DNA of 64,000 nucleotides from a virus. The stretch is taken from IMG/VR virus record IMGVR_UViG_3300028844_008248; one strand, written 5' to 3'. Numbering within the stretch: position 1 is the stretch's first letter; each line of letters opens with the position of its first letter. Below are positions 4,221 through 46,823 of the stretch, one piece after another. Position numbers and translations under genes: made by a program. The notes below the pieces were generated by a model, which worked only from the letters and a program-made list of their open reading frames with translations, searched no databases and was not told where the DNA came from.

Positions 4221-4505
4221 TTACCCTATAAAAACGTTTGAACTTCCGGTTACTCTTTTATGACTACACGAATCATTATCGTTTACTCTTACTGCTGGAA
4301 TACCACTAATAAAAACTGTTGATGATCCAGTTACCACCGTAGCTACACAGTGAGTTGGTGGTATTGGGCATGATACGTGTGGAGTTATTGCAGACCCAAC
4401 TACACTAGCCAATTGTCCATTTATAAGAACCGTTGATTGAAGAGTTGTTATGATCGCACCACCGCCATCATTGGTGTCTCCCATTCGAACTGCAAGCATT
4501 CCCAT
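4221..4505 (-). CDS. PAAR-repeat spike-tip protein (T4 gp5.4-like), 94 aa
   Basis: Gly/Thr/Val-rich PAAR-like sequence MGMLAVRMGDTNDGGGAIITT…; follows gp5-like spike gene. Confidence 0.75.
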   Translation of the reverse strand: MGMLAVRMGDTNDGGGAIITTLQSTVLINGQLASVVGSAITPHVSCPIPPTHCVATVVTGSSTVFISGIPAVRVNDNDSCSHKRVTGSSNVFIG

Positions 4506-4633
4506 GTTTGTTACCTTTATATTTTATTAATGCGTATTTATTGTTGATTAAATTTTCTTGGTATTCTTGATTCTGTTTGGTTATTATAAAACTGCCATAA
4601 TGTCTCTGGTATTCATTTCCAATGAATGCTAAT

Positions 4634-36690: not shown

Positions 36691-36911
36691 TTAGATGTAC
36701 CGCCATTAAACAATAAATAATTAACCATTATATTAAGTACAATTGATTGGGCAATATTAATAGCTGGCAACCCGAATAAAACAGGTACTATAAAATTCCA
36801 ACAATAAAATACAATAATCCCCGAAATAGTGACTCGTATTAAGAATAAAATTATGGCATGTCCCATAACATTAAACCATTCACCCCAATTAAATTTTTCC
36901 ATGTTATTCAT
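36687..36911 (-). CDS. Small membrane protein, 74 aa
   Basis: Two hydrophobic helices. Confidence 0.4.
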   Translation of the reverse strand: MNNMEKFNWGEWFNVMGHAIILFLIRVTISGIIVFYCWNFIVPVLFGLPAINIAQSIVLNIMVNYLLFNGGTSK

Positions 36912-37482
36912 TCCAATAAAAAATATGCGTACCTATATATTTTCTTTGCGAGAAAATATTTCTCCACACGGGTTTAACATAATTAGCATGATAATTTAAT
37001 GCTCCATGTGTCGGATCATTTTCCTTCGAGTAATATTTCAAAATATAATCCGCAACACTTTTGGAAGTAGCCCATGCTAATTTATCTTTTGGATCATCCA
37101 ATTTCCCATCCATCGTCCATGAAAACATTGGAACCAGTTTCTTAGTTTTTCTGTTTCGTCTTTTTTCCCAAACAACTTTACATATTGTGGATGGATATTT
37201 GTAAGATAATAGTCTGTTAATCGTAACATATCCAATGGCAATTTGACCATCCATATTTTCATTTCTTGATTCCCAATAAATATTTAGTGCCAAACATCTT
37301 CGATCCTTTTTTGTCAAACTAGATTTGAAAGATGGTTTAACAGCAACCCTTTTCTTAAAAGCAATTTCTTTTTTTACTGCAACTTGCTTTGATACTGTTG
37401 TGTGTGCTGGTTGAATAAAAATTACCAACGCCAGAATAGTAATCACATAAGAAAAAAATAATTTCATTGGGACTCCGATCAT
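36904..37482 (-). CDS. Secreted cell-wall hydrolase, SleB/Hydrolase_2-like, 192 aa
   Basis: N-terminal signal peptide; …LALNIYWESRNENMDGQIAIGYVTINRL… SleB-type motif. Confidence 0.55.
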   Translation of the reverse strand: MIGVPMKLFFSYVITILALVIFIQPAHTTVSKQVAVKKEIAFKKRVAVKPSFKSSLTKKDRRCLALNIYWESRNENMDGQIAIGYVTINRLLSYKYPSTICKVVWEKRRNRKTKKLVPMFSWTMDGKLDDPKDKLAWATSKSVADYILKYYSKENDPTHGALNYHANYVKPVWRNIFSQRKYIGTHIFYWNE

Positions 37483-37884: not shown

Positions 37885-39123
37885 TTAATCTCCCTTTATA
37901 TTCAATATCTGTTTTAGTGTATGTACAATATCAACCAAATCTTTTTGATTTTCCATAACAACATCAATATCTTTATATGCATCAGGAATTTCATCAATAA
38001 CGGATTGCCTCGTGTTACATACAATTCCTTCCATACGTTCTTCTAAATCTTCAAGAGTATATAAAGTTTTTGCTTTTGATCGTGAGAATCTTCTACCTGC
38101 ACCATGAGAACATGAATTAAAAGATTCTTGATTTCCCTTTCCACGTACAATAAAAGATTTCGCTCCCATAGAGCCGGGTATAATACCCATAGTTCCGGTG
38201 GAAGCATTAACAGCACCTTTGCGGGTAATCCATACATTTTTGCCATAGTGATGTTCTTTGGATACATAATTATGATGACATTGAACAACAGAATCTTTTA
38301 TAATAATATCCTTCTTATTCGAAAATAAATGATAAAACACCCCAAGAATTTGATCCATCATAACCTGTCGATTGTAATATGCATATTGTTGTGCAAGATT
38401 TAATGCTTCGACATATTCATCAAAATATACTGTACCTTCCGATAAGTAAGACAAATCTGCATCGGGAAGATTAATAAAATGTCGTTCCATATCTTTTTTT
38501 GCCAATTTTATATAGTGTTGTCCTATTCTATTTCCAAGATTTCTAGAACCAGAGTGTAGCATAATCCAAATATTATCCGATTCATCAACACACACTTCAA
38601 TAAAATGATTTCCACCACCCAGCGTACCAAGTCGGGAATATCCGTTTTCAAGAATTCGCTCTTTCATTTTTCGATCAGATATAATATGGTCAAATCCGTT
38701 TTCAAACATATTTTTCCATAATTTATCTCGGCTTCTACCCTTCGTGAACTCGTACTTGTTAGATTTAGAATCCTGAAACGATCTTTGATATCCAGATTTT
38801 CCACAAGGAACATTTTTAATTATTCTGTTGTGTAATAAATCTAACGTATTTTCTTTTAAGTCATGAGATGTCAGGTTTGTTTGTACCGCCATCATACCAC
38901 ACCCAATATCAACTCCAACAGAAGCAGGTACAATTGCGCCCGAAGTTGGAATAACCGAACCAACACATGCACCTTTGCCCAAATGAGCATCCGGCATTAC
39001 CGCAATATGTTTATGTATGAATGGAAGATTGGACATATGTTCTAATTGATCGTATGTAACCGAATCAATATCTTCAGTCCAAATCTTTACCGGGAATTTA
39101 CCCTTTGTCATTACCTGTTTCAT
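37885..39123 (-). CDS. rtcB: RNA-splicing/repair ligase RtcB (3'-phosphate/5'-OH RNA ligase), 412 aa
   Basis: Diagnostic …MPDAHLGKGACVGSV…, …HSGSRNLGN…, C-terminal …NSCSHGAGR… metal-binding motifs of RtcB. Confidence 0.85.
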   Translation of the reverse strand: MKQVMTKGKFPVKIWTEDIDSVTYDQLEHMSNLPFIHKHIAVMPDAHLGKGACVGSVIPTSGAIVPASVGVDIGCGMMAVQTNLTSHDLKENTLDLLHNRIIKNVPCGKSGYQRSFQDSKSNKYEFTKGRSRDKLWKNMFENGFDHIISDRKMKERILENGYSRLGTLGGGNHFIEVCVDESDNIWIMLHSGSRNLGNRIGQHYIKLAKKDMERHFINLPDADLSYLSEGTVYFDEYVEALNLAQQYAYYNRQVMMDQILGVFYHLFSNKKDIIIKDSVVQCHHNYVSKEHHYGKNVWITRKGAVNASTGTMGIIPGSMGAKSFIVRGKGNQESFNSCSHGAGRRFSRSKAKTLYTLEDLEERMEGIVCNTRQSVIDEIPDAYKDIDVVMENQKDLVDIVHTLKQILNIKGD

Positions 39124-39134
39124 TTATAACCTCT

Positions 39135-39323
39135 CTAATATGCAATTGCAAAATATAATACATAAAACCAACTAAAAAATCCATGCAATATTGCCCAACC
39201 AATATGATTCCAAGTCGAGTATGAAATTACAATAGCTAACACACAACCAAATCCAATTCCATCTGATACATCTATTTCAGTAGCCATATTATTTCTCTCC
39301 AACTCGATTAATACTGACCGCAA
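39135..39323 (-). CDS. Small membrane protein, 62 aa
   Basis: Hydrophobic. Confidence 0.35.
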   Translation of the reverse strand: MRSVLIELERNNMATEIDVSDGIGFGCVLAIVISYSTWNHIGWAILHGFFSWFYVLYFAIAY

Positions 39324-39489
39324 GTTTTTTATTCTTGGTTTTTCGTATGATATATTCTTCCTTCAATTTTTTATATCCATTTTTATCGGATATATCATAA
39401 CGAGTTATTTTAATTCCATTTTCTTTTCGTACTGTTTTCGTATCTTCATACGATTTGAAAACCATATTATACGCCATATAAAACTCCAT
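39289..39489 (-). CDS. Hypothetical protein, 66 aa
   Basis: ORF. Confidence 0.35.
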   Translation of the reverse strand: MEFYMAYNMVFKSYEDTKTVRKENGIKITRYDISDKNGYKKLKEEYIIRKTKNKKLAVSINRVGEK

Positions 39490-39515
39490 GTTAAAATTAA
39501 ACCAGACTCATACTA

Positions 39516-40421
39516 TCATACAACTTCTGGTTTGTCCATTATAAAATGGGCATAATCCAATAATTCTTCTTTATTTAATTCAAACTCTTCATGAAGTTCG
39601 GTAAGCTTTTTAAGAACTTTTCCAAGTCTCGATCCACTGGAATATCCAAGCTTCAATAAATCCTTACCATTAACCACTGGTGCAGGTTTTTCCTCTAATA
39701 CATCTAAGTCCGTTGCTTGGCTTTCTAACCATCCTGCAAAAGAGAAATCAACTTTTTCTACTGGCGTTCCTCGACCAGCCTGATCAGCTTTCGCTACCCA
39801 AAGTAATTCTGATAACGTTGCTGGATGAAGATTTCTTGCAAGTCGTTTGACCGCACCTTTACCAGCTTTATCTTTATACAAGGTAACAGGCTTCAGATGG
39901 TACTCTACCAACTTCAAAACTTTTGCTGTTGTGGCTTGGTCTACATTTAGTTTTTCGAGAAAGGTTTTAGTAGGAGCCAAACCAGCTTCTTCATGCCCTC
40001 GTGCGAAAGTATCCCATCCACCAACAAAAACTTTTTCCCCAGATTTAAATCCACCATCTTTTACCACTTTCAACACTGGATTATCATACCAAGTAACTTC
40101 TGGCTTTCCTAAGTCATGGCATAATACCGCAAGAAACAAGGTGAACCTTTGCCCATCTTCTAGATCAGAATCGCTTAAAAGCTCACTCAGAGCGTCTACG
40201 ACCATTTTAGTATGGGTCCATACATCACCTTCTGGATGCCAATCAGGACTTTGAAGCGTATCTGCCATATGCCTGAATTCTGGAAAAGTCTTATCAAAGA
40301 GTCCCAAATCCCATGCCAATTGAAGTCCAACAGATGGTTTTGGAGACTTCAAAAAAAGCTTCTTAAACTCTTCTGCAAACCTCTCTTTAGATACTGTATT
40401 TAATGTGTCAGTCATTTTCAT
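39516..40421 (-). CDS. tRNA nucleotidyltransferase (CCA-adding enzyme) C-terminal half: body + HD domain, 301 aa
   Basis: …ERFAEEFKKLFLKSPKPSVGLQLAWDLGLFDKTFPEF… (body) and …LAVLCHDLGKP… (HD motif); own SD GGAG and weak promoter. Confidence 0.7.
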   Translation of the reverse strand: MKMTDTLNTVSKERFAEEFKKLFLKSPKPSVGLQLAWDLGLFDKTFPEFRHMADTLQSPDWHPEGDVWTHTKMVVDALSELLSDSDLEDGQRFTLFLAVLCHDLGKPEVTWYDNPVLKVVKDGGFKSGEKVFVGGWDTFARGHEEAGLAPTKTFLEKLNVDQATTAKVLKLVEYHLKPVTLYKDKAGKGAVKRLARNLHPATLSELLWVAKADQAGRGTPVEKVDFSFAGWLESQATDLDVLEEKPAPVVNGKDLLKLGYSSGSRLGKVLKKLTELHEEFELNKEELLDYAHFIMDKPEVV

Positions 40422-40452
40422 AACTCCATTAGAACATTATTTAGGCTAATTG

Positions 40453-40830
40453 TCAAGTATTTTTTTGATCATCCATTGTTATTTTATTGTCGCCACGAAA
40501 AAAATAATTTAATCGTTTATCCCGTACTCTTTGTTTATCCCGTACTCTAGAAACACTCCATATCCCATCTTTATTTTCTTTATATACAAAAAATCTAAAT
40601 TTATTTGCAATACAAGTAGATCGTTTTACTACATTGTCTGACGCTCTTTTTTTATTATATTTTGCTATTGCCAGTAAATAGTTCCAATTATATTTTTCTA
40701 GAGTTGTTTTGGCTTCGTATAGACCACAACCAGTTTTGGTGCGAAATTTTCTTAGCTGGCTAATTTTATCTCTATTAGTCATTCGAGTCCTCACTCCAAT
40801 CATAATCATCAATACATCCACCATCTTCAC
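40453..40830 (-). CDS. Insert ORF 1 within split CCA gene, 125 aa (EF-Ts-N/UBA-like segment TKTGCGLYEAKTTLEKYNWNYLLAI)
   Basis: ORF within 1.1-kb insertion. Confidence 0.4.
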   Translation of the reverse strand: MKMVDVLMIMIGVRTRMTNRDKISQLRKFRTKTGCGLYEAKTTLEKYNWNYLLAIAKYNKKRASDNVVKRSTCIANKFRFFVYKENKDGIWSVSRVRDKQRVRDKRLNYFFRGDNKITMDDQKNT

Positions 40831-40957
40831 AATTCGGACAATAGTGAACTAGATATTCTGGATTTTCCCAACCCTCAGATACCATTTCGCTATCACATTT
40901 GTCAACTGGAAATCTACCGTTGCATTCAGAACAAATTGCAATGTCTGGAATTAACAT
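40775..40957 (-). CDS. Insert ORF 2, zinc ribbon, 60 aa
   Basis: CSECNG … CPNCEDGGC. Confidence 0.35.
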   Translation of the reverse strand: MLIPDIAICSECNGRFPVDKCDSEMVSEGWENPEYLVHYCPNCEDGGCIDDYDWSEDSND

Positions 40958-41253
40958 TGGTTATGATATCTTTGAAGATCATTATAATATTCTGAAAAAT
41001 ATTTTTCTCTTTCGATATTAAGAATAGCAATAATATCATTTAACATATCTGCTGTTTCTAGTTTTCCGTTTTTTGTAAGAGTATTTGGAAGAGTTGCGGA
41101 AAGTGCAGAAACGTCTTCTACATCTATTTTAACCTTAATATTAATATATTTAATATTTCTTTTTTCATATAAGGCATCAAATTCTTCATCTGTCAATGCA
41201 TCAATATCTTCACTGGTCATTTCATCTAATGTTTTCATATTGTTTCTATCCAT
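40951..41253 (-). CDS. Insert ORF 3, 100 aa, hypothetical
   Basis: ORF. Confidence 0.4.
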   Translation of the reverse strand: MDRNNMKTLDEMTSEDIDALTDEEFDALYEKRNIKYINIKVKIDVEDVSALSATLPNTLTKNGKLETADMLNDIIAILNIEREKYFSEYYNDLQRYHNQC

Positions 41254-41555
41254 TTTTCATCAAATTCTTGAGTCGGTAATTGATGTAATTTGAAAAAATC
41301 TTTGTTTTGTGGATAATCTCTAATATATAATCTAGCATAAAAAGGAATTACATTATTACTAATTTTAAATGAAGTTTGTGGTTTCATAGATACGGAAGAT
41401 AAAAATCGTACAACATGCATGATTCCATATGCAGAATATCTTTTTACTCCCCGCCCAATTAATTCATTTGTTTTTTCTTTAAATACTTCATATATTTCTG
41501 GTTTTTCTTTATGAATATCTTTAAATGTTTTCCAATGAGAATTTAGTTTAGTCAT
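41235..41555 (-). CDS. Insert ORF 4, 106 aa, hypothetical
   Basis: ORF. Confidence 0.4.
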   Translation of the reverse strand: MTKLNSHWKTFKDIHKEKPEIYEVFKEKTNELIGRGVKRYSAYGIMHVVRFLSSVSMKPQTSFKISNNVIPFYARLYIRDYPQNKDFFKLHQLPTQEFDEKWIETI

Positions 41556-42178
41556 AAAACAAGCTCCTTCATTTTATTAAAAGTTTCTGGTTCGACAGTC
41601 AATCCAAAACGACCAGCAAATTGAACTCCACGTAATACTCGAAGTGGATCATCACCAAACGTTTCAGGATCGACCATACGCAAAACACGATTTTTCAAAT
41701 CTTTCAATCCACCAAATGGATCGTGCCATCTACCATTAACACAAGGTCCATTTTCGTCTTCATCCCAAAACAATTCCATAGCAACGGCATTTATCGTAAA
41801 ATCTCTTCGCTTCATTGCGTTCTCCAATCCCATGAATGGATTGAGTTTAACATCAAACCCACAATGCCCAGCCTTAGTTTTAGAATCTGTTCTTGGAAGT
41901 GAAAGATCAAAGTCAAGACCATTCATTTTCATTTTATATACTCCAAAAGATTTTCCAACCTTTGAGTATTCTTCACCAGATTCTTCTAGGTAATGTTCGA
42001 ATTCATTTAAACTCATATTGTGGAATTCAACATCGAAATCATTAACATTCTCAAACATATCATCAGGACCATCTAAATCTGAAAGAGAAACCCATGAGTC
42101 ACGGACACAACCACCAACTAAATATAATTTAGCATGTTCTGGAAACATACTCATTAATGTTCTGAATTCTTTTTTCAT
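41552..42178 (-). CDS. tRNA nucleotidyltransferase (CCA-adding enzyme) N-terminal half: head + neck, 208 aa
   Basis: …LVGGCVRDSW… (GGxVRD), DFDVEF carboxylates, …RRDFTINAVAMELF…, …DPLRVLRGVQFAGRFG… class II NTase motifs; ends where body domain should begin. Confidence 0.75.
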   Translation of the reverse strand: MKKEFRTLMSMFPEHAKLYLVGGCVRDSWVSLSDLDGPDDMFENVNDFDVEFHNMSLNEFEHYLEESGEEYSKVGKSFGVYKMKMNGLDFDLSLPRTDSKTKAGHCGFDVKLNPFMGLENAMKRRDFTINAVAMELFWDEDENGPCVNGRWHDPFGGLKDLKNRVLRMVDPETFGDDPLRVLRGVQFAGRFGLTVEPETFNKMKELVL

Positions 42179-42266
42179 GACATTCCTTAAAAATTTTTAT
42201 CAAGTGGCATGGTGCTTGGTTGCCATCGGTGGCCTCTTAGACCTCACATACACACTTGATAAATAA

Positions 42267-42551
42267 TTAACCAACAATTCCATCGATAACTGATACTAGC
42301 ATATCGGCATATACCATGTCAACACTTTTCTTTACTTTGCGTTCTGCTTTCCAATATTGTACAGCTTCAACCGTGTAGAGGTCTTGACCTTCAACATATT
42401 CAATCGTAATCCAACCACGTTTGAGTTTCGTTCCATTGACTCGAAAAGCAAGAGTTGTTCCGTATGCTTTGTATTCTCTTGCGCCCCATGCTCCCAATGC
42501 CCAAAAATCAGTTGCTTTAATTTGGTCTAGAATTGTTTGCTGAACAGACAT
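42267..42551 (-). CDS. Hypothetical early protein (start at second Met after AGGAG; ORF-track start lies in promoter)
   Basis: Promoter 42589-42616; AGGAGATAAAAACATG. Confidence 0.45.
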   Translation of the reverse strand: MSVQQTILDQIKATDFWALGAWGAREYKAYGTTLAFRVNGTKLKRGWITIEYVEGQDLYTVEAVQYWKAERKVKKSVDMVYADMLVSVIDGIVG

Positions 42552-42588
42552 GTTTTTATCTCCTGAATCATTGTTTATCATGTAACCA

Positions 42589-42616
42589 GTATACCAGAGT
42601 TTTATTCGATGTCAAG
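42589..42616 (-). promoter_or_regulatory. Early promoter TTGACA-N16-TATACT (minus)
   Basis: agtataccagagttttattcgatgtcaa. Confidence 0.65.
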
Positions 42617-42863
42617 AATAAACATCAGATTCTTCAATCTTTCTCCCAAGTAATTTCTCTAGCTCTTTCAATTCACGGTTCAATTCAGCAAGTCGGGATC
42701 GAACTCGACCACCTGATAATTCACCATCACAAGTAAGATTTTCTGGAGAAAGGTCACTAAACACCTTTTCAGCCCATACCAAAATCTCTTCTTCGGTCTT
42801 TGGTAATTTTAATGATGGATCGAATATTTTATCCCATAACAAACGTTTCTTCATTTCTTTCAT
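42612..42863 (-). CDS. Hypothetical early protein, 83 aa
   Basis: GGAG SD; promoter 42907-42934. Confidence 0.45.
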   Translation of the reverse strand: MKEMKKRLLWDKIFDPSLKLPKTEEEILVWAEKVFSDLSPENLTCDGELSGGRVRSRLAELNRELKELEKLLGRKIEESDVYS

Positions 42864-42906
42864 TGTTTATCTCCGATAGGGTTAGTCAAATCTCAATTAC
42901 AAAGAT

Positions 42907-42934
42907 AGTATACCAGAGTTTCGGTAGGTGTCAA
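42907..42934 (-). promoter_or_regulatory. Early promoter TTGACA-N16-TATACT (minus)
   Basis: agtataccagagtttcggtaggtgtcaa. Confidence 0.6.
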
Positions 42935-42937
42935 GTT

Positions 42938-43171
42938 TTATTTAACATGCTGTGCAAAATATCTTTCACGTTTCGAGAGTTCATATCCTTTCGGAAGTCC
43001 TACTTTATTAAGAGTTTTGGTATCATGATATTCAGCCGGATAACCTGCTGTGCGAAGCTCTACAACCTGTTTAACGGCTTTATCTCTCGTATCTACAGGA
43101 AAGGCTTTTTTCCACTCAAAATTGGCTGTACCACCAACTCGATAATATGCAGTAAAAGTTCTTTTAGGCAT
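42938..43171 (-). CDS. Hypothetical early protein (start trimmed to MPKRTF… after GGAG)
   Basis: Promoter 43206-43234 overlaps ORF-track N-terminus. Confidence 0.45.
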   Translation of the reverse strand: MPKRTFTAYYRVGGTANFEWKKAFPVDTRDKAVKQVVELRTAGYPAEYHDTKTLNKVGLPKGYELSKRERYFAQHVK

Positions 43172-43205
43172 CTTCAATCTCCTTTGGTTCGGTTGACTAT
43201 GTAAA

Positions 43206-43234
43206 CAGTATAACAGAGTTTCGGAGTATGTCAA
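43206..43234 (-). promoter_or_regulatory. Early promoter TTGACA-N17-TATACT (minus)
   Basis: agtataacagagtttcggagtatgtcaa. Confidence 0.55.
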
Positions 43235-43530
43235 TGTTTATTTTCGGGTATGTAAAAGAAGGTGGGACGTTCTGTTTCTAGGTGTCCCAAGCCCAAGGCA
43301 ACTTTACGCCGCCAATGCTAGATCGTAATCATTTGCATTTATAATCTGATAGATTTTTTACTAGGCCAACTATCATCCTAGTGCTGTCTTAAAGATTATT
43401 ATATCCAATCGAATCCAGTTCGCCCCCATGAAAAAAGTGTATTGCACTTCTCGTTTTGATTATTATCCAATTTCGACATGTCAGAATAATAAACTAGATG
43501 GGGTTTCAACCATGAACAATACACTCTTAT

Positions 43531-43560
43531 GGTGGAGGCGGTGGGTATCGAACCCACGTC
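43531..43560 (-). other. Orphan tRNA 3' fragment (T-arm + acceptor 3' strand + CCA) with no matching 5' half
   Basis: minus strand …CGTGGGTTCGATACCCACCGCCTCCACCA; no complementary GGAGGCG within 150 nt. Confidence 0.45.
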
Positions 43561-43595
43561 TTAAATACTTTCGTCAATAAGATTATACAGCAATA

Positions 43596-43982
43596 TTATA
43601 CTATGTTGTACATACCATCCAATTTTGTAATACCATCTTGAAGATATGTTGGTATTGATTTATGTTCTTTTGTATTATCAAATACTGATAAAAATTTATT
43701 ACCATCTACTCCGGGGTTTGTACAAATCATTGTGAATTCAGGACCACGATAAACCCACTTAGGTAAAAATCGTTGTGTGTATATTCCATCTTGATACCAC
43801 TGACCCAACTCCACAACATCTTTTTTAGATTCCCAATATATTACATGATCTTTTTCAGTCGGATCAATATACCAAAAATAATTTAGTTTTGACTCCATAG
43901 GAATAACAACCCAATCTTCTTGATATCCGAAATATTCATAAATTTCATTTTGTAATTTAAAATATTCACCCAATAATTTCAT
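43596..43982 (-). CDS. Hypothetical protein, 128 aa
   Basis: ORF. Confidence 0.45.
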   Translation of the reverse strand: MKLLGEYFKLQNEIYEYFGYQEDWVVIPMESKLNYFWYIDPTEKDHVIYWESKKDVVELGQWYQDGIYTQRFLPKWVYRGPEFTMICTNPGVDGNKFLSVFDNTKEHKSIPTYLQDGITKLDGMYNIV

Positions 43983-44488
43983 ACAGTAATTCCTTTCTCA
44001 TGTAACTTCGCTTTCAAAGATTCTTCATCATCATCCGTCCAATTATCTTGCCATACTTTCAACAACGTTTTATACACCAGATAATTTGGATAATATTTTG
44101 GAGAATCCCAAATCCAATTATCACTTCGACTACCATTTCTAATAACTGATAACGCACTAGCAACTCCAGAACTACGAGATATTCCAGCATAACAATTCAC
44201 ACAAATTAAATCTATATTATCTTCATAATATTCAGTAAAATCTATAATGTCTCTTGCGTGTGATTCGTTAAATGGAATTATATCAGGATCAATATTACCT
44301 TCCCAATCTTTATTATCACTCACGTCATCAAACGTTAATTGTAATACATCCATCCTGTTTGGATCGGCTAGTAATTCTGCGAACCCATGACTACCATCAG
44401 GATGTTTCCCGGCAATTGATATTAATACATATGGTTGATCCCCGATATATTTTTCTATGTTTTGTTGGCTAAAAATTTTAAATATCAT
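43979..44488 (-). CDS. Cysteine-based phosphatase (dual-specificity/PTP-like, CX5R motif), 169 aa
   Basis: …ICVNCYAGISRSSGVA… = (V/I)xCxAGxxRS P-loop of Cys-phosphatases. Confidence 0.6.
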   Translation of the reverse strand: MIFKIFSQQNIEKYIGDQPYVLISIAGKHPDGSHGFAELLADPNRMDVLQLTFDDVSDNKDWEGNIDPDIIPFNESHARDIIDFTEYYEDNIDLICVNCYAGISRSSGVASALSVIRNGSRSDNWIWDSPKYYPNYLVYKTLLKVWQDNWTDDDEESLKAKLHEKGITV

Positions 44489-44832
44489 TTAATGTCTTCT
44501 CCATATTCAATTTTTAGATTTTCTTCACGCATGGCAACATCCACTATATCATTAATTTTTTTGTTCATTTCATCAAAAGCAGACGCTCTTTTTGCTAACT
44601 CTACTTTTATCCATTGTTTAAATTTATCGTTGTTGGTTAGTCTTTTAAATGCGTTCTTTTTATTTTGTTCAAGACTTTTTGAATCAGCACCAGTAGCCAT
44701 CACCCCACTTGCTCTATGGAATATTCTAACACAATTTTTGTGTTTGTTTCTGTGTTGTCCACCAGCACCAGACCCAGAATAAAAACTGATCTCAAAATCC
44801 TTTTTTGTCATTCCAAATATATGTTCTCTCAT
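44485..44832 (-). CDS. Peptidyl-tRNA hydrolase, ArfB/ICT1-like release-factor-family GGQ protein, 115 aa
   Basis: …SGSGAGGQHRNKHKNCVRIFH… GGQ motif + basic C-terminal tail. Confidence 0.65.
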   Translation of the reverse strand: MREHIFGMTKKDFEISFYSGSGAGGQHRNKHKNCVRIFHRASGVMATGADSKSLEQNKKNAFKRLTNNDKFKQWIKVELAKRASAFDEMNKKINDIVDVAMREENLKIEYGEDIK

Positions 44833-45239
44833 TACATTTCTATATATCTATTATCAGATATATCCAAGTCGGTATGATATTCGGGTTCGATTACTATTAT
44901 ATTTCTTTCATTACAAATACTTTTCATATTCGCTGTTCCATTTCCACCCGGAAACGCAATTGCAAAATCTGGTTTGGTATCAGCCATTTCTTTGTTACGA
45001 ATTCGACCAGCCATATATCTACCATATTTTTTCCACTTGGCATATATAATCTGATGATCTACTTTGTTATGTTCGGCCCAACATGCGGCTAACGTATCTG
45101 CTCCAGAGGCTCCACCCAAGACTAATGAAATCTCTTCATTATAATCAACGTAATATTTATTTAATATCAAATCAATAAATTCATTATCTGTAAAATCCCT
45201 ACCACCTGTTATCAAAATTTTTATTTTCATACGTTCCAT
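44832..45239 (-). CDS. SLOG/LOG-like Rossmann-fold protein (DUF2493-like), 135 aa
   Basis: …KILITGGRDF… …LVLGGASGADTLAACWA… …AFPGGNGT… Gly-rich nucleotide-binding-loop pattern. Confidence 0.4.
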   Translation of the reverse strand: MERMKIKILITGGRDFTDNEFIDLILNKYYVDYNEEISLVLGGASGADTLAACWAEHNKVDHQIIYAKWKKYGRYMAGRIRNKEMADTKPDFAIAFPGGNGTANMKSICNERNIIVIEPEYHTDLDISDNRYIEM

Positions 45240-45560: not shown

Positions 45561-46823
45561 TTATTTGCGATTCTTGTTAGAACCCATTGTCATATCCAAA
45601 TGAAGATCATTTGCGGTCTTGATTTTAATCAAGTCCATAAAATCGGTAACTGGAGATACATTTCCAGACTTACCAGATTGACCCATGACAATATTTGGAA
45701 CAAGTTTTTGTGCATTCTTTTCTAGAGCCGTAGCGTAATTTGCATTAACATTTACCCACGCTTCAAGTTTTTGTGCTAACGCACCATCGGCACTCATTAC
45801 CAACTTCTTTCGTTCCGATTCACCTTGACCCAAAAGAATCAACTGTTGTTTAGTTTCTTTTGCGGCCTGTCTAGCGAGTTTTGCAACTTCAAGTTCTTTA
45901 TGAGCATGAAGTTCCGCAACTTCTTTATCTCGTTCCGCAACAACAACAGCTTTAACTTTTACTTCCTCTTCTAAATATTTGGCTTTCATCACGTTAGCCA
46001 AACCTTCTTGCTCTACAGTAATAGCATCTTGTTCTGCTTTTTTAGCAAGAGATTTAGCAGTAGCGATAGCCATCAAATTTTCTTGCTGTTGGGCAATCTG
46101 TTTTCGTACCCGGTCTGGATAATCGAACTGTTTTACTTCGAAATTGACAATCCGAATACCAGTATTATTCAGAGGATGATTTGCTTCCCTCAAAATAATT
46201 CCAGTTTTCTTATCAACCCTCGGACGTTTTGCGAAGATTTTAATTTTAGTAAGACCAGACGGATCGGTTGGATCGACTACTTCTTTTTCATATTCTTCGG
46301 TCAAATACATTCCATATTCAACCTGATCTCTTGCCATTGTAAAGAAGTCTGTTTTCTTTTCTGCGTAAGATTCTCTAGCAGTCATAAGATTAGCAGTATT
46401 GATCAATGCTTTTCGTACAATCGGTAAGATCAATTTAGCTTCTAGGTCTTCTGGCGACATATATGCATGGTGCGTAATTAGACCAATAGCCTGTTCTGGC
46501 GAAGTGGGTAATGCATATCGCATTGTACCCGAAATTCCAGTTTCCGAACCATCAGCAAACCGTACTTGAACACTAGTATCGCTCGAACCACCTTCTACAT
46601 TATCTTTAGTGAAATAAAATGTTTCCGATTTAGGCCAAACTTGAATATCACCAAACCATTGTCCATACATACCCGGTTGCATATGTGCGGTCATTTCACC
46701 AGAAACGGCGGCCTGTTTAATCTGATAAGTTCCCTTTCCTACCGTTTCAACAATACGTGTGCCAAATACTCCAGCGATAATTGCTGAAATAAAAACTGCA
46801 AATACTGTAATTTTAAGTTTCAT
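45561..46823 (-). CDS. SPFH/band-7 (prohibitin/flotillin/HflKC-like) membrane protein, 420 aa
   Basis: N-terminal TM, SPFH-type core, long A/K/E-rich coiled-coil C-terminal region. Confidence 0.6.
   Translation of the reverse strand: MKLKITVFAVFISAIIAGVFGTRIVETVGKGTYQIKQAAVSGEMTAHMQPGMYGQWFGDIQVWPKSETFYFTKDNVEGGSSDTSVQVRFADGSETGISGTMRYALPTSPEQAIGLITHHAYMSPEDLEAKLILPIVRKALINTANLMTARESYAEKKTDFFTMARDQVEYGMYLTEEYEKEVVDPTDPSGLTKIKIFAKRPRVDKKTGIILREANHPLNNTGIRIVNFEVKQFDYPDRVRKQIAQQQENLMAIATAKSLAKKAEQDAITVEQEGLANVMKAKYLEEEVKVKAVVVAERDKEVAELHAHKELEVAKLARQAAKETKQQLILLGQGESERKKLVMSADGALAQKLEAWVNVNANYATALEKNAQKLVPNIVMGQSGKSGNVSPVTDFMDLIKIKTANDLHLDMTMGSNKNRK

Follow-up and report, generated by a model that had tools for sequence, protein, structure and literature searches.

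The viral DNA analysed here is IMG/VR record IMGVR_UViG_3300028844_008248, a stretch of 64,000 nucleotides (nt) that is referred to as the window. Between positions 37,885 and 44,832 it carries a compact cluster of genes whose predicted products act on transfer RNA (tRNA) or on ribosomes: an RtcB-type RNA ligase, a CCA-adding enzyme encoded in two halves, a transfer-messenger RNA (tmRNA) in two pieces, a protein with the CX5R motif of cysteine phosphatases and a stand-alone GGQ domain. The minus strand carries every gene across 37.8-47 kb of the window. The phage is a marine T4-like myovirus that encodes gp6, a gp48-like protein, gp32, gp59, gp33, RNase H and a class II ribonucleotide reductase, and its gp32 is ~45% identical to cyanophage gp32 and to the gp32 of the OM43 phage Melnitz. 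No nucleotide match to the cluster or to the tmRNA was found among the INPHARED phages; the phage is therefore without a close sequenced relative. The elements of the cluster are the following.

37885..39123, minus strand: RtcB 3'-phosphate/5'-OH RNA ligase, 412 amino acids (aa) (Pfam RtcB, 437 bits)
39516..40421, minus strand: C-terminal half of the CCA enzyme, RNA-binding body and HD domain, 301 aa (PolyA_pol_RNAbd, E 2.3e-10)
40453..41555, minus strand: variable insert of ~1.1 kb with four small open reading frames (ORFs), parting the CCA halves
41552..42178, minus strand: N-terminal half of the CCA enzyme, catalytic head, 208 aa (PolyA_pol, E 6e-16)
~43254..43427, minus strand: tmRNA coding piece with the GGGGGCG 5' acceptor strand, helix P2, pseudoknot PK1, tag frame, terminal hairpin and U-tract (ARAGORN, Rfam)
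43428..43529, minus strand: tmRNA precursor spacer, 102 nt, hairpin-closed, predicted to be excised (length and fold)
43530..43593, minus strand: tmRNA acceptor piece, 64 nt, with the 3' strand of P2, T-arm, 3' acceptor strand and encoded CCA (Rfam alignment)
43979..44488, minus strand: CX5R cysteine-phosphatase-fold protein, 169 aa, predicted RNA end-healing phosphatase (motif, AlphaFold2, gene neighbourhoods)
44485..44832, minus strand: stand-alone GGQ peptidyl-tRNA hydrolase domain of release-factor domain 3 type, 115 aa (Pfam RF-1, E 1.6e-15)

When the CX5R protein and the CCA head were each scanned against IMG/VR, no close relatives came up. Two related metagenomic contigs, L017 and L018, were reached through protein-database homologues of the CX5R protein. 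The window and both contigs share one gene order, SPFH, SLOG, (GGQ), CX5R, tmRNA, CCA head, variable insert, CCA tail, RtcB, with the parentheses marking the gene that L018 lacks. The shared order includes two small ORFs between the CCA tail and RtcB and continues past RtcB with a SleB-like hydrolase and gp33. Amino-acid identity of L017 and L018 to the window is 60-83%. The small ORFs between the cluster genes differ among the three phages, whereas the five functional elements persist. Because two relatives that have diverged this far keep the gene order, the clustering is more than chance.

A preliminary description of the stretch, made from the sequence alone, had proposed an RtcB ligase, and this was borne out. 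The Pfam match spans positions 1-426 of 426 (E 1.1e-130), and the metal-binding and His-GMP motifs are all present, namely VDIGCGM, GGGNHF, HSGSR, CHHNY and SHGAGR at residues 71, 169, 190, 282 and 339. The nearest solved relatives are the tRNA-splicing ligases of T. thermophilus and P. horikoshii (E ~1e-38; PDB 2epg, 1uc2 and 4dwr were aligned). The protein is 83% identical to the L017 copy, and it falls below the cut-off of the PrfH-linked model NCBIfam TIGR03073 (release_rtcB), with 146.3 against 271.8 bits. RtcB is present in 700 phage records, 221 of which are mycobacteriophages.

The split CCA enzyme was likewise upheld. The two ORFs cover consecutive positions of the same models (2-164 then 168-261 of PRK10885; 20-198 then 197-447 of TIGR02692), the head matching its part of PRK10885 with E 2.2e-29. 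The head motifs GGCVRD, DFDVE, RRDFTINA, DPFGG and DDPLRVLR are found in the N-terminal half, and the ERF.. and H..HD..H..D residues in the C-terminal half, where the HD domain scores 20.9 bits, slightly below the Pfam cut-off of 22 bits. When the halves are joined, they align across the junction to intact phage CCA enzymes in a single high-scoring segment pair. These intact homologues in other phages are single ORFs, and CCA enzymes occur in 471 phage records. The C-terminal half has its own GGAG ribosome-binding site and ATG, and is 70-77% identical to the copies in L017 and L018, which begin at the identical point.

In all three phages the break falls at the same residue, the head ending in ..KMKELV and the tail opening with M..TDTL..SKERF, and its flanks are the best-conserved segment of each half. 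The halves have diverged to 61-77% identity among the three phages, with intact ORFs and all motifs kept. The content of the insert changes: it holds four ORFs in the window, two in L017 and three in L018, and no homologues are shared between the inserts. Two of the four window ORFs match PHROGs of unknown function, and neither a group I intron nor a riboswitch was detected in the insert with Rfam (E <= 1). Since the relatives keep the same gene order and the same break point with different inserts, the split enzyme looks functional. It is most likely a working two-subunit protein whose halves would associate, and we conclude that both halves, like the tmRNA, are under purifying selection. The break itself looks like a hot spot for cargo insertion.

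Two observations concern the inserted genes themselves. In L018, a gene between the CCA halves (4230-4595) encodes a cREC_REC domain, a phosphoesterase-type domain that has been linked to RNA ligases (PMC7824862). In the window, the last insert ORF (40453-40779, minus strand) probably starts at the ATG at 40779 (MTNRDKISQLRKFRTKTGCGLYEAK..). A UBA or EF-Ts-like N-terminus was considered for its product and dropped, as the sole PDB match, a UBA domain, had a non-significant E of 1.1.

Multiple tRNA genes had been noted elsewhere in the window, and six were found at 47.8-63.8 kb. The CCA is already encoded in all six and in the tmRNA gene, so the role of the CCA enzyme would be repair and not maturation.

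The preliminary description had also listed an orphan tRNA fragment in the cluster. This reading did not hold: ARAGORN, Rfam and cofolding identify the fragment as the acceptor piece of a complete permuted tmRNA. ARAGORN called the tmRNA at 43213-43622 with the tag ANDYDLALAA, the gene itself occupying 43254-43593. The Rfam scores were 112.6 bits for tmRNA_permuted (gathering score 47) and 96.6 bits for beta_tmRNA (gathering score 84); tmRNA was the sole Rfam match in the region, with no glutamine riboswitch or intron at E <= 1. The tag frame (43336-43304) opens with the GCA resume codon at 43336 and closes with a UAA stop at 43306-43304. The acceptor stem has 7 bp (GGGGGCG with CGCCUCC-ACCA) and includes a G3:U pair, the T-arm is GUGGG/CCCAC, and the H-type PK1 has the stems CUAGG/CCUAG and GAUAG/CUAUC. 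A G3:U acceptor pair specifies alanine.

Permuted tmRNAs lie at the matching place in L017 and L018, with the tags ANDYDLALAA and ANDYDVLAIAA. Cofolding of the two pieces gave the intermolecular acceptor stem, the T-arm and the long P2 helix in all three sequences. Comparison of the three tmRNAs shows compensatory substitutions at acceptor positions 4-7 and in three pairs of the T-stem, two of P2 and two of PK1, whose stem 1 covaries in L018; G3:U and the tag frame are retained. The spacer of L018 is also 102 nt long, with a different sequence and the same closing hairpin as in the window; that of L017 has 12 nt. With both pieces, PK1 and the tag present, the gathering scores passed and this covariation, the reading of the fragment as an orphan or integration remnant was rejected. 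Identifying it as half of a functional-looking two-piece tmRNA removes the puzzle of the fragment and adds trans-translation to the predicted functions of the cluster. A TATAAT sequence overlaps the stop codon of the upstream ORF, directly before the tmRNA 5' end. A search of bacterial genomes for the tag, made to find the host, was uninformative: its four matches lie in unrelated metagenome-assembled genomes (Atribacterota, Thermodesulfobacteriota and Clostridia).

The CX5R protein had been described as a cysteine phosphatase. Motif and predicted fold agree with this; a domain match does not accompany them, as neither Pfam nor NCBIfam gave one at E <= 0.01. The P-loop is C99-Y-A-G-I-S-R105-S106, and C-x-AGISRS is invariant in 10 homologues, as is the upstream D55 of an FDD motif, a candidate for the general acid. 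The sole PHROG match is phrog_5614, of unknown function, and the PDB sequence match is DUSP16 at E 1.3. The AlphaFold2 model reached a predicted local distance difference test (pLDDT) value of 90.3, and all 50 listed Foldseek matches in the PDB are cysteine-dependent phosphatases of the protein tyrosine phosphatase (PTP) superfamily, mostly dual-specificity phosphatases (DSPs), with a probability of 0.95-1.0 and a template modelling (TM) score of 0.4-0.5. They include MKP5, DUSP8, DUSP12, the vaccinia VH1-type Tyr/Ser phosphatase 2q05, PRL-1 and PTPs. The model thus supports a divergent, apparently new family of cysteine phosphatases.

Gene neighbourhoods point to the possible substrate of this family. 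A family pattern search recovered 181 viral stretches, and 80 IMG/VR loci were taken for neighbourhood analysis and dereplicated to 53 lineages. Among the 80 loci (iterated hidden Markov model, HMM), Rnl was found in 15, Thg1 in 13, RtcB in 4 and CCA enzymes in 4. A gene for RtcB, Rnl, CCA enzyme or Thg1 lies within 10 kb of the CX5R gene in 18 of the 53 lineages, and in 10 of these 18 the nearest one is at most 1 kb away (binomial P ~2e-6 against the uniform expectation), including overlapping Rnl-CX5R pairs. Examples are L016, with the order CX5R, 101-aa ORF, RtcB, and L012, with CX5R, Zn-ribbon, GIY-YIG gene, RNA ligase. The phosphatase is thus linked non-randomly to RNA repair genes, and we infer that it is an RNA-end phosphatase. 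In a full-text literature search, no paper was found that connects dual-specificity phosphatases to RNA repair in phages, the main RNA-repair review (Burroughs & Aravind 2016) being outside its coverage.

Some CX5R loci have a further recurrent arrangement. In L076-L088 and related loci, an array of WGR-PARP, a 162-aa protein and Thg1 lies ~0.4-2.5 kb upstream of CX5R, and a metallophosphoesterase and a Macro-like protein (recognized by eye, with no Pfam match) lie downstream. Such arrays suggest NAD/ADP-ribose chemistry in a repair context.

The GGQ protein had been taken for an ArfB-like rescue factor. Its GGQ/RF-1 domain was confirmed and the ArfB identity was rejected. The GGQ lies within SGAGGQHRNK (residues 19-30), and G24, G25 and Q26 are invariant in 34 family members. 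The ArfB equivalog model NF006718 gave 21.1 bits against a cut-off of 100 bits, with residues 8-38 alone matching, whereas the RF1, RF2 and PrfH models scored 40-46 bits. The protein covers positions 104-174 of the 200-position PrfH model, and its best PDB sequence matches are mtRF-R/C12orf65 and RF2. In a fold search with the predicted structure (pLDDT 85), domain 3 of RF2 and RF1 came out on top; PrfH was match number 13, mtRF-R number 29 and ArfB number 43. Over its C-terminal 49 residues the protein carries a net charge of -1, compared with ~ +13 for the tail of E. coli ArfB. On these sequence and structure comparisons, the protein is a predicted stand-alone peptidyl-tRNA hydrolase domain and not ArfB.

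The preliminary description had considered such a rescue factor rare in phages, which is only partly true. The GGQ mini-protein was found in 239 INPHARED records, 206 of them mycobacteriophages, and the family comprises at least 176 metagenomic clusters of 105-130 aa with a conserved C-terminal ..M.EENLKIEY. Homologues lie inside tRNA arrays in five or more independent contigs (L002, L004, L009, L011 and L019), and L008 has one 66 bp upstream of its RtcB gene. Suppressor tRNA genes for amber codons (anticodon CTA) were observed within a few kb of GGQ homologues (L009/L010, 12292-12366) and of a CX5R homologue (L012, 2512-2582). In the mycobacteriophage ScottMcG, an amber-suppressor tRNA at 92153-92225 (L106, 32154-32226) is ~23 kb from the GGQ gene. 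This proximity may hint at a link of the GGQ and CX5R genes to stop-codon recoding.

Further genes lie between and beside these elements.

39135..39489, minus strand: pair of small conserved ORFs, 62 and 66 aa, separating RtcB from the CCA C-terminal half, at the same position in L017 and L018
42267..42581, minus strand: conserved 104-aa ORF flanked by the tmRNA and the CCA head, with 80% identity to its L017 counterpart; matches phrog_9437 (unknown function)
43596..43982, minus strand: 128-aa ORF between the CX5R gene and the tmRNA; matches phrog_24232 (unknown function)
44832..45239, minus strand: YAcAr/YspA-type SLOG domain protein, 135 aa, upstream edge of the cluster (Pfam PF10686, E 1e-15)
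45561-46823, minus strand: SPFH/Band-7 gene, 420 aa, which with the SLOG gene forms the upstream edge kept in all three relatives

The 66-aa ORF has no Pfam match, and the 128-aa ORF no tblastn match in L017 or L018. The SLOG protein is 73% identical to the copies at the equivalent position in both relatives, and L002 and L003 (253-kb viral contig) have an SLOG homologue at a distance of 2.3 kb from the GGQ gene. A strong terminator-like hairpin (45542-45512) was observed downstream of the SPFH gene. At the other edge, a SleB/CwlJ-like cell-wall hydrolase (36904-37482, minus strand) separates RtcB from gp33; L017 conserves it too, and the matching region of Melnitz encodes a homologue. Three promoter-like sites of almost identical sequence (TTGACA, 16 nt, TG-extended TATACT; 43234-43207, 42934-42907 and 42615-42588, minus strand) precede successive small ORFs in the stretch from the tmRNA to the CCA head. 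One of the listed ORFs, of 98 aa with a TTG start (42938-43234, minus strand), overlaps the 3' end of the ARAGORN tmRNA call. Its true start is probably the ATG at 43171 behind an AGGAG ribosome-binding site, which gives 77 aa.

The theme of RNA and translation maintenance that had been proposed for this region was supported: a span of 7 kb holds four enzymes and a tmRNA, each expected to have tRNA or ribosomes as its target, and the cluster is syntenic in two relatives. We consider it probable, with moderate confidence, that the region is a conserved cassette for maintenance of the translation apparatus in a clade of marine T4-like phages, combining RNA repair with ribosome rescue. RtcB would reseal tRNA or other RNA that has been cut to leave 2',3'-cyclic-phosphate/3'-phosphate and 5'-OH ends, and the two-subunit CCA enzyme with its HD phosphohydrolase domain would rebuild damaged 3' CCA ends. 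The CX5R enzyme would most likely trim terminal phosphates from broken RNA ends. The tmRNA, charged with alanine through G3:U and working with host SmpB, would free ribosomes stuck on broken mRNAs, its ANDYDLALAA tags directing the peptides to host proteases, and the GGQ domain would hydrolyse the peptidyl-tRNA of ribosomes that have stalled, independently of any codon. The RNA damage could come from host anticodon or defence nucleases, or from the phage's own shut-off and degradation of host mRNA; a counter-defence role is plausible.

Several results weigh against this interpretation. SmpB was not found in the window (tblastn with an E. coli SmpB query, best E ~1), so the tmRNA must use host SmpB or a gene outside the window. 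The GGQ gene adjoins RtcB in one of 10 IMG/VR loci, the genes being mostly unclustered in other phages, it sits among replication genes in ScottMcG, and it is the gene absent from L018. The GGQ protein has neither a codon-reading domain nor an ArfB-type tail. Shuffled sequence contains promoter-like sites at least as often as the real one. Finally, RtcB needs a 3'-phosphate, and a 3'-phosphatase would therefore oppose it. Such an activity suits Rnl and CCA enzymes, which makes the substrate of the CX5R protein uncertain; it could also be a protein phosphatase.

The same genes could be accessory genes that reside together by descent in the T4-like hyperplastic zone upstream of gp33-gp59-gp32 and act independently. 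The tmRNA might, for instance, tag host proteins so that their amino acids are recycled, a role proposed for Melnitz, and proximity would then be functionally meaningless. Synteny is indeed confined to three fairly close relatives, many unrelated small ORFs are interspersed, and L018 does without GGQ. The Melnitz tmRNA stands at the matching genomic position with no RtcB, CCA, GGQ or CX5R gene nearby, and GGQ homologues are usually found away from RtcB. Yet all five functional elements act, as predicted, on tRNA or ribosomes, and they persist while the variable ORFs turn over. In other lineages, moreover, CX5R is independently linked to RNA-repair genes, and GGQ to tRNA arrays and once to RtcB. 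We therefore regard mere co-residence as unlikely.

A narrower target is conceivable, in which GGQ and RtcB form a pair like PrfH and RtcB2: GGQ would free the peptide held by ribosomes with 16S rRNA cleaved at the decoding centre, as by colicin E3, and RtcB would religate the rRNA, which would be the main target. The function of PrfH-RtcB2 has been established experimentally (PMC9304027, PMC9223846), the PrfH, RF1 and RF2 models all outscore ArfB on the GGQ protein, PrfH-ribosome structures are among its fold matches, and the adjacent genes of L008 show a comparable pairing. We nevertheless judge this improbable. At 115 aa the GGQ protein is without the domains by which PrfH senses damage to the decoding centre, the RtcB stays under the 271.8-bit cut-off at 146 and resembles the tRNA-splicing type, and 5.4 kb separate the two genes in the window. 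The CCA enzyme, the tRNA genes and the Thg1 and Rnl partners of the phosphatase family point to tRNA instead. Decay of the locus, with a dead CCA gene and a tRNA-like element left over from an integration site, would fit the interruption of the CCA gene by 1.1 kb of foreign ORFs, the single-ORF CCA homologues of other phages and the known prophage-derived ssrA fragments (discussed in PMC9004378). It is hard to reconcile with two CCA halves that are intact with all motifs in three phages, break at an identical point and are best conserved at its flanks, or with a complete tmRNA (both pieces, PK1 and tag) that scores above the Rfam gathering scores and carries compensatory substitutions. We consider it very improbable.

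A stronger form of the maintenance-cassette interpretation joins several proposals and is put forward tentatively, as a fair possibility. In it, the CX5R protein would found a new family of polynucleotide end-healing enzymes with a cysteine-phosphatase fold that works with RtcB, Rnl, Thg1 and CCA enzymes. The CCA enzyme would be an obligate two-subunit protein whose gene break serves as an insertion hot spot for cargo. Together with the tmRNA and the tail-less GGQ protein, they would make up a self-contained viral system for tRNA repair and ribosome recycling.

T4 Pnkp and Rnl1 heal and seal tRNA cleaved by the PrrC anticodon nuclease, which lets late proteins be translated. No Pnkp or Rnl1 homologue was identified in the cluster, and RtcB, unlike that pair, joins 3'-phosphate and 5'-OH ends directly and needs no kinase or 3'-phosphatase. 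The preliminary description had presented the cluster as an analogue of the T4 pathway built from different parts and thereby overlooked published phage kits. Jumbo phages carry sets of tRNA genes, RtcB and/or Rnl, end-healing phosphoesterases, a CCA enzyme, Thg1 and peptidyl-tRNA hydrolase (Iyer et al. 2021, PMC7824862), which have been interpreted as countering RNases that attack the translation apparatus (PMC7824862). The cluster described here differs from these kits in several respects. Its hydrolase is a bacterial-type GGQ domain and theirs is PTH2, and its candidate end-healing enzyme has the DSP fold, whereas HAD, calcineurin-like, HD, 2H and cRec enzymes are listed for theirs (PMC7824862). 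Here the CCA enzyme is split and a tmRNA lies in the same cluster. The carrier is also different, a T4-like marine phage known from a 64-kb window, with an identical GGQ protein on a 76-kb metagenomic contig, and a jumbo genome is not indicated.

Two-piece tmRNAs are known from marine phages, and 53 of 133 distinct phage tmRNAs are of this kind (Buchholz et al. 2022, PMC9004378). The closest parallel is the Methylophilales phage Melnitz, a marine T4-like phage whose permuted tmRNA is also upstream of the gp33 coactivator, gp59 and gp32. The terminal hairpins are similar, with a AAACAGAA loop and an ACCUU tail, and both tags end in ALAA. The tRNA-like core alone is alignable, however, and the tag is ANDYDLALAA here and ANDNYVPVDYALAA in Melnitz. 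No glutamine riboswitch was detected here, and the corresponding 14-kb region of Melnitz contains no RtcB, CCA, GGQ or CX5R gene.

For the GGQ protein, PrfH-RtcB2 (PMC9304027) offers a comparable pairing of a GGQ release-factor homologue with RtcB, and the two genes are adjacent in the viral contig L008. The phage protein, in contrast, corresponds to domain 3 alone, its RtcB is below the cut-off of the linked model, and the genes are non-adjacent in the window. Like ArfB (YaeJ) and ICT1 it would be a small codon-independent GGQ protein; unlike them it has the acidic/hydrophobic ENLKIEY C-terminal motif in place of a basic tail and a fold nearer to domain 3 of RF1 and RF2. The Bixzunavirus (cluster C) mycobacteriophage ScottMcG likewise unites in one genome a homologous GGQ mini-protein, 37% identical, and a tmRNA that lies within a large tRNA array. 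There the tmRNA is one-piece and the GGQ gene ~19 kb away from it, host phylum and phage lineage are unrelated, and RtcB was not located in ScottMcG itself.

The idea of a phage kit for RNA repair and ribosome rescue and the two-piece tmRNAs of marine phages are thus already known, and the kit is unusually complete and not fundamentally new. What is new is its composition: a DSP-fold phosphatase that is absent from the listed end-healing enzymes, a CCA enzyme whose split is conserved, a GGQ domain of bacterial type where the jumbo-phage kits have PTH2, and a tmRNA in the same conserved cluster. A warning for annotators is that a tRNA-like 'fragment' in the genome of a marine phage may be one half of a permuted tmRNA gene. 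The phosphatases appear to form a new family, and their genomic surroundings predict RNA as the substrate. A naturally split CCA enzyme could help to show how its catalytic head works together with the body that binds tRNA, and the widespread ~110-aa GGQ protein offers a testable question of how stalled ribosomes are recognized. If the proposed interpretation is true, even mid-sized marine phages of streamlined hosts would carry both RNA repair and ribosome rescue, built from parts unlike those of the T4 paradigm.

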